Source of the DNA: Thermoplasmata archaeon
Lineage (GTDB): Archaea; Thermoplasmatota; Thermoplasmata; Lutacidiplasmatales; SKW197
DNA length: 64,000 nt
Assembly (NCBI GenBank): GCA_038874435.1
Contig: JAVZCK010000008.1
Coordinates: forward strand, 9,705 to 73,704
Direction: 5' to 3'
Shown: piece after piece, positions 18,335 through 21,390 of the stretch
How the letters are laid out: each line of letters begins with the position of its first letter
How positions within the stretch are numbered: the first letter of the stretch is position 1
The notes under the pieces: model-generated
Told to the model about the DNA's origin: nothing
What the model saw: the letters and a program-made list of their open reading frames with translations, nothing else
Database searches by the model: none
Made by a program: the position numbers and the translations under genes

Positions 18335-18367
18335 CATGTGGGACTGGACTGTTGGCAGATGTGTCGC
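18335..18367 (+). other. 5' arm of 23S rRNA processing stem
   Basis: catgtgggactggactgttggcagatgtgtcgc is near-perfectly complementary to 21391-21424 (gcgatacatttgccagtcaaacagtcccatgtg). It brackets the mature 23S sequence. Confidence 0.7.
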
Positions 18368-20285
18368 TTGCTGCTGACTCCGCCACTTGGGGGATGGTCT
18401 GGCTTGTCCACCGAAGAAGGGCGTGCCAAGCTGCGATAAGCTGTGGGTAGGCGCATGGAGCCTTTGATCCACAGATGCCTGAATGGGACTTCCTGCCGCA
18501 AGGCGGTCAGTAATGACCGGGAACCCCCCGAAGTAAAGCATTTTAGTAGGGGGAGGAAAAGAAACCAATAGGGATTCCCTTAGTAAAGGCGATCGAAGAG
18601 GGAAAAGAGCAAACCGAATCCGCCCAGAAATGGAGCGGAGATGTGGAGTTTGGACCTCCGTACTTCTTCGCTTCCTGACCCGAAGTTCCCTGGAACGGGA
18701 CGCCATAGAGGGTGATAGCCCTGTAGGGGAAGGGAAGAAAGAAGATTGGAGGTATCCAGAGTACCATGCGTTGGATATCGCGTGGGAATACGGGAGGCAC
18801 AAACTTCCAACTCTAAATATGTGACAAGTCCGATAGTGGATATAGTAGTGTGAACGAACACTGAAAAGCACCCTTGACGGGGAGTGAAAAGTGCCTGAAA
18901 CCAGGTGGCTATAAGCCGAGACGGCGGGAAAGCGTAATGCACCGTCGTCACGTCCGTGCTGAAAAACGGGCCAGGGAGTTCCGATCAGCGGCGAGGTTAA
19001 GCAGGTTAACTGCGTAGCCGGAGCGAAAGCAAAAGTCCGCAACCCGCAAGGGTGAGGGACTGGGTGTGTTCGCCCGGAGTCGCTGGTGGGAGACCCGAAG
19101 CCGGCAGATCTATCCCTGGGTAGGTTGAAGCCCTCCGAAAGGGGGGTGGAGGACCGAACCGGTGCTGACGTGCAAATCGTTCGGATGACCTGGGGATAGG
19201 GGTGAAAGGCCAATCTAGGCCGGGAATGGCTGGTTCCTCCCGAAACTACTCGCAGGTAGACCTCGCCAGAGAGCGTTCGTGATGTAGAGTGACTGATTAG
19301 GTGCTTAGGGCTCGAAAGGGCTCGGCATCTTATCAAACTCCGAAGTTGCGAACCTCGTAGAAGGCGGGAGTGAGGGCCACAGGGGTAAGCCCGTGGTGCA
19401 AAAGGGAATGCAACCCAGCCCTGAGTTAAGGTCCCTAAATGCTGGCTAAGTGTTATGAGAAAGGGCGTCTCATGACTAAAACAACTGGGAGGTTGGCTTA
19501 GAAGCAGCCATCCTTTAAAGAGTGCGTAACAGCTCACCAGTCGAGTCATGGGGCCTCGAAAATGAACGGGGCTAAAGCCAGCTACCGATACTCAGGAGCA
19601 CCGAATAGGTGATCTAGTAGGGAGGTGTCGAGTGTGGGTAGAAGTAAGGGCGTGAGCTCTTATGGACCGCACTCGAATACGGATCCTGGGAGGAGTAGCA
19701 GCAAAGAGGGGTGAGAACCCCCTCCGCCGAAGGGGCAAGGGTTCCTCGACAATGTCCGTCAGTCGAGGGTTAGTCGGTCCTAAGGATGCGCTTAATCGCA
19801 GCATCCGAAAGGGAAGCAGGTTAATATTCCTGCACTGCAGTGTTAAAGCCCTATGCCTGACGCATCGCGGTAGTCCAAGCATCCTTGCCAGGATGTCTAA
19901 GCGTATTAAGGACGGGGAGTGCCGTAATGGCGAGAACCGTCCCAAAGCGTGATGGGGTTCCCGTAGGGGGACTTTGGATGATCCGTGGTGCCAGTGAAAA
20001 GGGTATAGGGGCAAACTGCAACCGTACCTAGAACTGACACAGGTGCCCCTGGGTGAGAAGCCCAAGGCGTGTCGGCGAGAATTCGAGCGAGGGAATTCGG
20101 CAAATTAGCCCCGTAACTTCGGGATAAGGGGTGCCAGCCTAGAGATAGGCTGGTCGCAGTGACAAGGGCGCTCCGACTGTTTAATAAAAACATAGATGGC
20201 CGCAAGACCGAAAAGGTTCTGTATGGCCGTTGAAGCCTGCCCAGTGCCGGTATCTGAACACCCGTTCCAACGGGACGAAGGACCG

Positions 20286-20317
<32 letters not shown>

Positions 20318-20384
20318 CCCTTTTTCTGCTCGCTCCGCTTCGCTGAAAAAGCGTTGACGGAAAATGTGGAAAAAAGGGGGAGAT
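20318..20384 (+). other. about 67-nt insertion in 23S domain IV (3' of H69, about E. coli position 1927-1929); putative mini-intron or expansion element
   Basis: The universally conserved CUUAA|GGUAGCG is interrupted. The insert is closed by an inverted repeat (CCCUUUUU...AAAAAAGGGGG). It shares an 18-nt core AAAAGCGUUGACGGAAAA with the second insertion. Confidence 0.6.
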
Positions 20385-20927
20385 AGGTAGCGTAATACCT
20401 TGTCGCTTAATTGGCGACTTGCATGAAGGCCCAACGAGAGCGCTACTGTCCCCGCTCGGAAGCCGGCGAAACTGACTTACTGGCGAACAGTCCAGTATCC
20501 TCCACCTGAAAGCGAAGACCCCGTGGAGCTTTACTGCAGCCTGTGGTTGTGATACGGTTCTGGATGTGTAGTGTAGGCGGGACCCGTTACAAAGGGCCTG
20601 TCGCTAGGCAGGTACCGAGGGGCCGATGAAACACCGCCCTTCTGGAATCGTACCACTAACTTCCTTCGGGGAGGACACCCATAGGTAGGCAGTTTGGGTG
20701 GGGCGCCACGCCCTCAAAAAGATAACAAGGGCCCCCAAAGGTCGGCTCAGGTAGGTCAGAAATCTACCGTAGAGTGCAAGGGCATAAGCCGGCTTGACGC
20801 TGTTGCGCCCAACGAGCAACAGCGATGCGAAAGCAGGGCCTAGCGAACTACTCAACCTCCTTTGTGGGGGTGAGTAATAAGAGAAAAGTTACCCCGGGGA
20901 TAACTGAGTCGTCTCCAGCAAGAGTTC

Positions 20928-20973
20928 ACACAACCCTTTTGCGACGCAAAAGCGTTGACGGAAAAGGGTGGAA
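20928..20973 (+). other. about 46-nt insertion in 23S domain V (between GAGUUCA and UAUCGAC, about E. coli 2475); putative mini-intron or expansion element
   Basis: The conserved AAGAGUUCA|UAUCGAC is interrupted. The insert is closed by CCCUUUU/AAAAGGG. It contains a CGACGC-AAAA-GCGUUG hairpin and the same AAAAGCGUUGACGGAAAA core as the first insertion. Confidence 0.6.
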
Positions 20974-21390
20974 CATATCGACCTGGAGGCTTGCTACTTC
21001 GATGTCGGTTCTTCCTATCCTGGTGGTGAATGAGCTGCCAAGGGTGGGGTTGTTCGCCCATTAAAAGGGATCGTGAGCTGGGTTTACACCGTCGCGAGAC
21101 AGGTGTGTTGCTTTTTGGTGGAGGTGCATTGGTGCCTGAGGAGAAGGTCCCTTTAGTACGAGAGGAACGAGGGATCGGCGCCTCTAGTTCATCGGTTGTC
21201 CGGCAGGGCATTGCCGAGCAGCCACGCGCCAAGGGATAAAGGCTGAAAGCATCTAAGCCTGAAGCCCACTTCAAAAAGAGGCACCTTTAAGAACACCCGT
21301 AAATGACGGGTTTGATAGAGCAGGGGTGTACGCAGGGAGCGCAAGCGACCTGCTCAGCCCGCCTGCCACTAACGTTCGCAGCATTTGCGA

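Follow-up and report, generated by a model that had tools for sequence, protein, structure and literature searches.

Two predicted bulge-helix-bulge mini-introns in the 23S rRNA gene of a Thermoplasmata archaeon, and the family of archaeal elements to which they apparently belong

The 23S rRNA gene on a 64,000-nucleotide stretch of DNA from a Thermoplasmata archaeon (NCBI GenBank assembly GCA_038874435.1, contig JAVZCK010000008.1, positions 9,705 to 73,704 of the forward strand) is interrupted by two short inserts that share an identical core. What are these inserts, and how did two of them come to lie in one gene? An earlier note on this DNA had weighed degenerate mini-introns, a family of tiny mobile elements and retained expansion segments. 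The present analysis of sequences and modelled folds makes it highly probable that both are bulge-helix-bulge (BHB) mini-introns, independent and recent insertions of one tiny, non-autonomous element family. Their splicing is strongly inferred from structure and from the empty sites of close relatives, and the shared core apparently marks an undescribed family of tiny elements in archaeal stable-RNA genes. The whole stretch is called the window below, and positions without a locus number refer to it; other loci are numbered with the prefix L.

The host gene and the two inserts were located as follows:

18365 to 21387, forward strand: archaeal 23S (large subunit, LSU) rRNA gene, host of both inserts (Rfam RF02540, 2756 bits, model positions 1-2987).
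20317 to 20384, forward strand (equivalent placement 20318-20385): predicted intron 1, 68 nt (covariance model alignment; sister junctions; identical insert in L138).
20930 to 20976, forward strand (equivalent placement 20931-20977): predicted intron 2, 47 nt, in the H89 loop (covariance model alignment; junctions in L132 and L133).

In the covariance model (CM) alignment of positions 20230-21080, 69 nt stand where the model has 1 (after CUUA) and 49 nt where it has 2 (H89 loop, after AGAGUUCA). By hand mapping, insert 1 falls just 3′ of H69, at 1927/1928 in E. coli numbering, and insert 2 at 2477/2478. This alignment and the insert-free sister genes described below establish that the two inserts are real; the coordinates in the earlier note (inserts of about 67 and about 46 nt) were off by 1-3 nt. 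The identical 18-nt core reported there, AAAAGCGTTGACGGAAAA, was found exactly twice in the 64 kb, once in each insert. No third copy was present in the window even when 3 mismatches were allowed (0.09 matches expected by chance). Outside the module to which this core belongs, in which 25 bases are identical, the two inserts cannot be aligned.

Both inserts are framed by the motif that guides archaeal protein splicing of RNA, in which a 4-bp helix is flanked by two 3-nt bulges and from which circular introns are released (PMC7714728). The elements of the two motifs are listed here, an arrow marking the predicted cut:

20308 to 20317, forward strand: BHB 1, 5′ side (outer helix 20308-20310 ACC, central helix 20311-20314 CUCU, bulge 20315-20317 UA↓A).
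20379 to 20388, forward strand: BHB 1, 3′ side (central helix 20379-20382 GGAG, bulge 20383-20385 AU↓A, outer helix 20386-20388 GGU).
20318 to 20378, forward strand: internal helix h2 of intron 1 with the enclosed part (minimum free energy (MFE) fold, z −3.5 to −3.7 against dinucleotide shuffles).
20922 to 20930, forward strand: BHB 2, 5′ side (outer helix 20922-20923 GA, central helix 20924-20927 GUUC, bulge 20928-20930 AC↓A).
20971 to 20979, forward strand: BHB 2, 3′ side (central helix 20971-20974 GAAC, bulge 20975-20977 AU↓A, outer helix 20978-20979 UC).

Folding of the exon-intron junctions, the check proposed in the earlier note, gave a canonical BHB at both sites. Each has a 4-bp helix between two 3-nt bulges on opposite strands (3-4-3), readable from the sequence, and helices flank the motif on both sides, as in the strict hBHBh′ form. 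The exon-exon helix comprises 3 bp at site 1 (A20308-U20388, C20309-G20387, C20310-G20386) and 2 bp at site 2 (G20922-C20979, A20923-U20978), the latter running on into the H89 stem. On the intron side, h2 of intron 1 is formed by CCCUUUUUCUGC (20318-20329) with GUGG-A-AAAAAGGG (20366-20378; 8+4 bp), and the corresponding helix of intron 2 by CA(A)CCCUUUU with AAAAGGGUG (2+7 bp, one bulged A). The closing inverted repeats CCCUUUU(U)/AAAA(A)GGG noticed earlier are indeed present in both inserts, at 20318-20325/20371-20378 and 20934-20940/20962-20968. MFE folds of the two inserts gave z-scores of −3.5 to −4.2 against shuffled controls, and constraining the fold to the BHB cost 1.2 kcal/mol at site 1 (−31.3 against −32.5 for the MFE) and 0.7 kcal/mol at site 2 (−33.3 against −34.0).

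The archaeal splicing endonuclease cuts after the second base of each bulge; checked here on tRNA introns, this rule gave the canonical 37/38 junction. Applied to the window, it predicts the junctions CUCUUA↓AGGUAGCG and GAGUUCAC↓AUCGAC. The glmS-23S neighbourhood of relatives was compared with the window at both insert sites, with the following results (identities are those to the window):

L132, GCA_026414225.1: GlmS 91%, 23S 97.6% identical; neither insert.
L133, GCA_049970095.1: GlmS 77%, 23S 96.5% identical; neither insert.
L139, GCA_038896575.1: GlmS 91%, 23S 97.3% identical; without insert 1, contig ending before site 2.
L138, GCA_038883375.1, an independent assembly of the same species: GlmS 100%, 23S 99.9% identical; identical insert 1, contig ending before site 2.

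Synteny with glmS and tgt is kept in the relatives; in the window glmS and a tgt-like gene flank a solitary 23S gene, and this order is that of the sisters L132 and L133. Site 1 reads AACTATGACCCTCTTA↓AGGTAGCG, uninterrupted, in both sisters, and CTCTTA↓AGGTAGCG occurs there in L139 as well. Site 2 is likewise uninterrupted in L132 and L133, as GAGTTCAC↓ATCGAC (in longer context GCAAGAGTTCAC↓ATCGACC). The BHB-predicted junctions equal the insert-free alleles of L132 and L133 exactly, and L139 agrees for site 1 only. Site 2 can serve as a test, in that the BHB rule gave GAGUUCAC↓AUC and not the universal GAGUUCAUAUC, and the relatives have C there. The H89 loop of this lineage, where uninterrupted, is GAGUUCACAUCGAC; the domain V site had earlier been taken for the universal GAGUUCAUAUCGAC, an assumption that the insert-free sisters contradict. 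A different splice register at site 2, chosen so as to regenerate the universal GUUCAUAUC, was rejected: no BHB fits it, and the sisters carry GUUCACAUC. Among more distant 23S genes, one from Micrarchaeia has no insert at site 1, and that of L104 has none at site 2.

By this comparison, removal of both inserts through the standard archaeal splicing geometry would be scarless, and the spliced 23S rRNA would be identical at the junctions to that of the insert-free relatives. The same comparison makes both inserts recent gains in one species-level lineage and not old relics, since 23S genes that are 96.5-97.6% identical do not have them. The suggestion of degenerate BHB mini-introns is thereby upheld in one half and lost in the other: the 3-4-3 motifs and the exact empty-site junctions support the mini-intron, and the insert-free close relatives contradict the relic.

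The shared core leads beyond this gene. It forms part of a module built from CAACCCUUUU, AAAAGCGUUG and a tail RYGGAAAA, with a variable loop or hairpin between the first two; in the window this module is represented by the following stretches:

20315 to 20325, forward strand: 5′ box of the module in intron 1, (U)AACCCUUUUU (compared with the CAACCCTTTT box; the first two bases are exon).
20347 to 20364, forward strand: core 18-mer AAAAGCGUUGACGGAAAA, copy 1 (exact match).
20931 to 20940, forward strand: 5′ box of the module in intron 2, CAACCCUUUU (pairing with AAAAGGGUG, 20962-20970, as helix h2).
20948 to 20965, forward strand: core 18-mer AAAAGCGUUGACGGAAAA, copy 2 (exact match).

Two scans were made. 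Species representatives (one genome per species) were searched for the exact 18-mer, which gave at least 120 loci; metagenomes were searched with CAACCCTTTT-N(1-30)-AAAAGCGTTG fixed and the tail left free. Family counts are matches listed from these two scans and hence lower bounds. Together they hold at least about 157 module copies, spread over many archaeal phyla and mostly associated with tRNA genes, which speaks for the tiny mobile element family among the earlier proposals; the search for the 18-mer beyond this gene, likewise proposed there, led to tRNA, 16S and RNase P RNA genes of other archaea. The species scan contributed at least about 70 archaeal copies. The CAACCCTTTT decamer, which was not in the query, stands 1-89 nt upstream of the 18-mer in 69 of the 71 archaeal copies listed. 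Some 40 further matches are bacterial and share no other similarity; they are chance matches or unrelated. Among the metagenome matches listed, the free tail is ACGGAAAA in 51, ATGGAAAA in 17 and GCGGAAAA in 9, and RYGGAAAA-type tails, near variants included, make up about 95 of 122.

The shortest complete copies measure 29-31 nt. Apart from one mismatch, the halves of the module form a 10-nt inverted repeat, and they are able to pair (CAAC/GUUG, a conserved C·C mismatch, CUUUU/AAAAG). This pairing is supported by compensatory changes in degenerate copies (CAGC...GCUG in L074; C-G to U-A in L003 and L039; C to G opposite the mismatched C in L109). In longer introns the partner of CAACCC is instead a second GUUG(G) or GGGUUG that directly precedes the 3′ splice motif; the second GUUG(G)-CAAC pairing supplies the intron-side helix of the BHB, as in both window introns. 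A full second terminal inverted repeat was considered as a general feature and rejected, being rare and not above controls (the scoring script was flawed). Across phyla 28 bases of the module, the C·C mismatch among them, are near-invariant, which argues for recognition by a protein over mere hairpin formation.

Carriers of the module include Micrarchaeia, Iainarchaeia, Aenigmatarchaeota, Woese- and Nanoarchaeota, Parvarchaeota and Altiarchaeia, Methanocellales, Methanophagales (ANME-1, anaerobic methanotrophic archaea), Syntrophoarchaeum and Methanosarcinales, and further Thermoplasmatales, Hydrothermarchaeaceae and others. At least 10 metagenome-assembled genomes (MAGs) hold several copies each. 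Rfam 15 contained no family matching the module (gathering threshold on the window; E≤10 on insert 2), and no description of it was found in the full-text literature, searches with the sequence strings included. When 1033 open reading frames (ORFs) from 68 archaeal loci were clustered, no linked protein emerged; no family occurred in more than 4 loci, and those that recurred were housekeeping. Viral contigs yielded no module either: the 8 IMG/VR matches to the 18-mer all lack the CAACCCTTTT box and are for that reason regarded as chance. With no recurring neighbour protein family and no module in viral contigs, the element is non-autonomous.

Most of the copies listed lie in or next to tRNA genes, not rRNA genes. 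Candidate tRNA introns were validated by excision in silico at BHB-compatible positions, followed by prediction of a tRNA across the junction with ARAGORN. In this way 15 sense tRNA introns were validated in the genome set and at least 28 of 157 copies overall, mostly at 37/38 and in tRNAs for Gly, Arg, Ser, Pro, Glu, Thr, Tyr, Cys, Leu and Gln; some lie in the D loop or the T loop. The 5′ cut falls 0-3 nt before CAACCC in most of them, and every validated intron copy is in sense orientation. Copies were also found in rRNA genes. A 136-nt copy in the 16S gene of L195 has a strong BHB (4+3+6 bp) whose junction GGCUGAA↓ACUUAAAGG is the classical archaeal site 908, and copies lie near the 3′ end of the 23S genes of L003 (a tandem pair) and L104.

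Three of these rRNA loci deserve a description of their own. In the 23S gene at L003:1-2900 the module is present as two identical, tandemly arranged units that repeat every 66 nt and lie at the edge of the contig; interpretation as a CRISPR repeat was rejected, as the 'spacers' are identical and the tandem lies inside the 23S gene. The 16S gene at L003:3288-5423 (Micrarchaeia) measures 2136 nt against 1478 nt of the model and has several insertions, one of them a degenerate module with compensatory changes. The copy at L104:533-569 shares with window intron 1 the module plus the first variable bases (CAACCCTTTTTCTGCTCG); no strict BHB was found around it at the thresholds used.

How, then, would the window introns be removed? 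Four exon bases just before the last two exon bases would form a helix with four bases close to the 3′ end of the insert, and the splicing endonuclease EndA would cut after the second base of each bulge in the 23S precursor. Cutting would precede the final folding of H69 and H89, because the exon strands of the BHBs borrow bases of those helices. The ligase RtcB would join the exons and release introns of 68 and 47 nt, probably as circles. To our knowledge, EndA and RtcB are universal in archaea. The EndA of Thermoplasmata is of the narrow-specificity dimeric type, and for euryarchaeal-type enzymes the strict hBHBh′ form is expected; the strict 3-4-3 geometry of both sites fits such an enzyme. 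The 23S gene of the window is probably single-copy, and for that reason an unspliced insertion in it would be lethal. The EndA and RtcB step itself rests on the general background of archaeal splicing (PMC7714728, PMC4090602).

The origin of the introns is a separate question. Each window insert brought its own four exon-complementary bases in exact register, and random insertion is hardly expected to do this twice in a single-copy essential gene. The two target loops resemble parts of tRNA. Site 1, CUCUUA↓A closed by ACC/GGU, exactly matches the tRNA-Lys(CUU) anticodon stem-loop that carries an intron at 37/38; site 2 is similar to a T loop, and introns with the module are found in T loops too. 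This suggests, on sequence grounds, retargeting by mimicry, possibly at the RNA level. As a favoured guess, which is speculative, the variable 3′ tail of a copy would select loops resembling its previous host site, and the conserved module might be the handle for the mobilising machinery. In a stable RNA, BHB splicing or a tolerant position would make the insertion harmless.

Several observations weigh against the interpretation as BHB mini-introns of one element family. At weak thresholds a BHB-like match is found near 48% of random positions, and because of this background only strong BHBs, or those validated by empty sites or tRNA prediction, were counted. In the RNase P RNA of ANME-1 (Methanophagales) the module lies in the P3 region just before the GAGGAAAGUCC box, in sense orientation in L063:6646-6963, L102:4550-4865 and L257:2915-3189 and in antisense in L109:3005-3298; in L257 the bare 22-nt module hairpin seems to act as P3 itself, and in P3 the module is apparently tolerated, not spliced. 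Antisense copies also lie next to tRNA genes. In-frame copies are found in protein-coding sequence. A 30-nt insertion encoding QPFKKALTEK/N occurs in orthologous ORFs of L040 (minus strand, ~1048) and L060:3601-3630, which share 29 identical module bases despite a protein divergence of about 50% (estimated by eye) and whose products look PaREP1-like in sequence, and L098:1998-2030 encodes YNPFIKSVDGK within an open frame of 1034 amino acids from an uncultured 'Halobacteria' MAG; no convincing BHB flanks any of the three. Sense copies begin 1-5 nt after the 3′ ends of 5S or tRNA genes in L056:5260-5425, L114 (5S 493-614), L165, L167, L169, L170, L174, L203, L234, L235, L245 and L254, where the CCCUUUU run could double as an oligo-U terminator. 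Finally, direct repeats of upstream sequence, 11-33 nt long, flank 19 of 138 copies (14%) as against about 0.3% of mismatched-flank controls (L019, L042, L044, L088, L095, L108, L117, L183, L210, L223, L230, L232, L252 and others). Many of these repeats consist of the leader and the first 12-20 nt of a tRNA gene, so that a partial 5′ tRNA copy and the module stand upstream of an intact tRNA; their variable length is unlike the target-site duplication of a transposase, and the two window inserts have no such flanks. A purely RNA-level intron model does not cover the antisense, in-ORF, gene-flank and direct-repeat copies.

These are the copies on which the strongest alternative draws, a real possibility that nevertheless falls well short of being the expected one. 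It accepts splicing and regards the module as a hairpin element of DNA, similar to a miniature inverted-repeat transposable element (MITE) or a repetitive extragenic palindromic (REP) sequence, moved by an unlinked enzyme such as an HUH/Y1-type or other transposase, with the BHB acting as a survival filter. Both orientations at the same place in RNase P RNA, antisense copies beside tRNA genes, in-frame copies in three ORFs, copies directly behind tRNA and 5S genes and the excess of direct repeats would all follow. An invariant hairpin with a conserved C·C mismatch is also what protein-recognised hairpins have, and no protein family encoded in cis recurs in the 68 archaeal loci. The same survey of ORFs near these copies failed to turn up a candidate enzyme, however, and the target sequence is not conserved, the 3′ boundary varies and the repeats define no fixed duplication length. 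Random landing followed by selection would hardly give two in-register 4-nt exon matches in one species-level lineage, nor the 28 tRNA introns among the 157 listed copies, which are far above what random landing would give.

Copying at the RNA level is considered unlikely. An excised intron would pair through its 3′ splice-helix bases with a look-alike 7-nt loop of another RNA, enter it by reversal of EndA and the ligase or by trans-splicing, and reach the genome through cDNA and recombination. The four exon-complementary bases carried by each insert, the identity of site 1 with the tRNA-Lys(CUU) anticodon loop with an intron at 37/38, the T-loop-like site 2 together with T-loop introns of the module, and the exclusively sense orientation of validated introns all accord with it. 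How BHB introns transpose is an open question in the literature (PMC4090602). EndA and RtcB are not known to splice in reverse, though, and the route requires a reverse transcriptase, which is not known from most of these genomes. The splice-helix bases differ between almost all copies, and the antisense, in-ORF and repeat-flanked copies fall outside it.

That the inserts are retained, lineage-specific expansion segments whose core binds a ribosomal or assembly factor is very improbable. In its favour, both are stable stem-loops protruding from hairpin or junction loops, and in P3 an unspliced module is apparently tolerated. Against it stand the close relatives without inserts, the breakage of universally conserved functional sequence beside H69 and, close to the peptidyl-transferase centre, in the H89 loop, and 3-4-3 BHBs whose cuts restore the sequence of those relatives exactly. 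In 28 tRNAs the same module is removable, and there it must be removed because retention would destroy the tRNA. The expansion segments proposed in the earlier note were accordingly abandoned. An assembly or binning artefact or a decaying rRNA pseudogene has next to no probability left, for although the genome is a MAG and chimeric assemblies readily arise in rRNA regions, the independent assembly L138 contains an identical intron 1, the gene is full length and high-scoring without other gaps against the sister genes, its synteny with glmS and tgt is kept and the architecture of the inserts is precise and biologically meaningful.

Smaller candidates were rejected along the way. Pistol ribozyme (shared AAGCGUUGA), hammerhead, C/D box and H/ACA RNA were excluded by inspection and gave no Rfam match; a K-turn or L7Ae site was excluded by hand, as tandem G·A pairs cannot form in either insert; and in an integron attC-like site the R′ and R″ boxes misfit and the upstream flank is not conserved.

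The mini-introns of the window can be set beside several known systems. Kjems and Garrett reportedly described archaeal rRNA BHB introns in 1991. ORF-less mini-introns occur in the 23S gene of Staphylothermus marinus, and knowledge of short ORF-less BHB introns in 23S domains IV and V goes back to the work on Staphylothermus and Desulfurococcus. Such BHB introns are documented in 16S and 23S genes of Thermoproteales and Aeropyrum (PMC7714728; 16S survey in PMC4496867), and in DPANN rRNA genes they co-occur with group I introns (PMC6125680). The window inserts resemble these introns in being short, of the protein-spliced type (their splicing being predicted) and located in the conserved cores of domains IV and V, in having a canonical junction BHB and no ribozyme core, and in lying at or next to classical sites, to which the L195 member at 16S 908 adds another. 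They differ in that the host is a member of the Thermoplasmata and not a crenarchaeon, that the pair shares a 28-nt module also found in tRNA introns, in non-intron contexts and in many phyla, and that the gain is demonstrably recent, the sister sites being empty.

For Thermoproteales tRNA genes, a 2010 study reportedly found related BHB introns at different sites and in different genes, with the mechanism unknown, and the BHB requirement was thought to define the possible targets (as summarised in PMC4090602). Related intron sequences at different positions and genes are found here too: a near-identical sequence occupies two 23S sites and, across loci, tRNA position 37/38, the D loop and the T loop. 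The Thermoproteales introns belong to one order, to tRNA genes only, and are similar over the whole intron, whereas here an invariant module extends across DPANN, Halobacteriota-type methanogens and ANME, and Thermoplasmatota, and its hosts include rRNA, RNase P RNA, gene flanks and ORFs in both orientations.

With LAGLIDADG introns (I-DmoI, I-PorI) and archaeal group I introns (PMC6125680), the inserts share 23S sites (1923-1931 and domain V) and presence/absence polymorphism. They differ in their size of 47 and 68 nt, which leaves no room for an endonuclease ORF, as the earlier note had rightly concluded. Group I and group II models gave no match (Rfam gathering threshold on the window; E≤10 on insert 2). 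Endonuclease homing is site-specific and for that reason cannot account for dozens of different sites.

Introners are eukaryotic transposable elements that create spliceosomal introns (PMC9860276). The present family is like them in being a multi-copy, non-autonomous element whose insertion is neutralised by host splicing and which brings bursts of intron gain; it is unlike them in using a BHB and a protein endonuclease, in its length of 29-140 nt and its mostly non-coding RNA hosts, and in that no transposase or regular target-site duplication was found here. Other relatives in design are REP elements with their RAYT transposases and the IS200/IS605-derived hairpin elements (PATEs). With these the family shares a short imperfect hairpin of conserved sequence, an adjacent conserved single-stranded tail, many dispersed copies in both orientations and a lack of coding capacity. 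It differs from them in that no Y1/HUH gene lies near any copy examined (68 archaeal loci), in conservation across phyla instead of within one clade, and in a strong tie to splice motifs in RNA genes. Function is thus like that of Introners and anatomy like that of REP elements and PATEs, with the defining features of neither. Many dispersed, conserved copies and presence/absence polymorphism between close relatives are both found, as in a MITE. The window inserts themselves have the features of BHB introns that were examined and lack those of homing-endonuclease introns, self-splicing introns and expansion segments. What appears to be new is one module common to insertions in tRNA, rRNA and RNase P RNA of distant phyla, non-intron copies in both orientations, and a filled-versus-empty pair for two rRNA sites in near-identical genomes.

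Some further features of the window and of the matches are recorded here. The full-length LSU rRNA is the sole Rfam match at gathering threshold in the 64 kb; no 16S or 5S gene was found there with Rfam and ARAGORN, and the only tRNA gene is one for tRNA-Pro, far from the 23S gene (ARAGORN). Unlinked rRNA genes are typical of Thermoplasmata. The intergenic DNA at 640-820 contains a hairpin AACCCTTTTC...GAAAAGGTTT similar to the module's outer stem but without the core; several GC-rich hairpin repeats (gggtgccaaccctcggggg, ggggcgtagcccctcg) come after it. This hairpin may be an ordinary terminator or else a relative of the module that has decayed. Outside the archaea as binned, the module lies next to or in archaeal-looking tRNA genes on contigs assigned to 'Sulfurovum sp.' (L088, L117) and 'Falkowbacteria' (L099) MAGs. 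Binning contamination is the probable cause, with real transfer as the alternative; the Sulfurovum contigs have low coverage. The 18-mer without the CAACCCTTTT box occurs in MAGs of Oscillospiraceae and Lachnospiraceae (L001, L002, L008, L030, L035, L118), loci that have a common downstream leader (...gagtaac...agagagag...ggctgaaag...). Judging from its sequence context, the 18-mer may there include a TTGACG −35 box, with a riboswitch- or T-box-like leader downstream of it; these bacterial matches have no relation to the archaeal element.

Taken further, the inserts could represent a hitherto unrecognised pan-archaeal mobile mini-intron, a counterpart of Introners; this broader proposal is put forward tentatively, with slightly more doubt than belief. 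Elements of 29-140 nt, their invariant 28-nt module read by a trans-acting machinery, would multiply inside a genome and also cross from phylum to phylum (DPANN symbionts and their methanogen, ANME or Thermoplasmata hosts being possible partners), enter loops of stable RNAs that resemble tRNA loops and be neutralised by BHB splicing. If true, this would provide a tractable system for the gain of protein-spliced introns.

BHB introns are the archaeal relatives of eukaryotic tRNA introns, and how they are gained has been a question since site-shifted introns were described in Thermoproteales. The window pair presents two insertions soon after the event, in a single-copy essential host gene, with empty sister sites and a module that links them to more than 100 copies in distant phyla. 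Filled and empty sites let RNA-guided and DNA-level insertion be compared directly, and the module offers a handle for finding the mobilising factor. In MAGs of DPANN, ANME and Thermoplasmata such mini-introns matter in practice as well: they disrupt the annotation of rRNA and tRNA genes, interrupt primer sites and disturb phylogenetic alignments, and a covariance model of the module would flag them.

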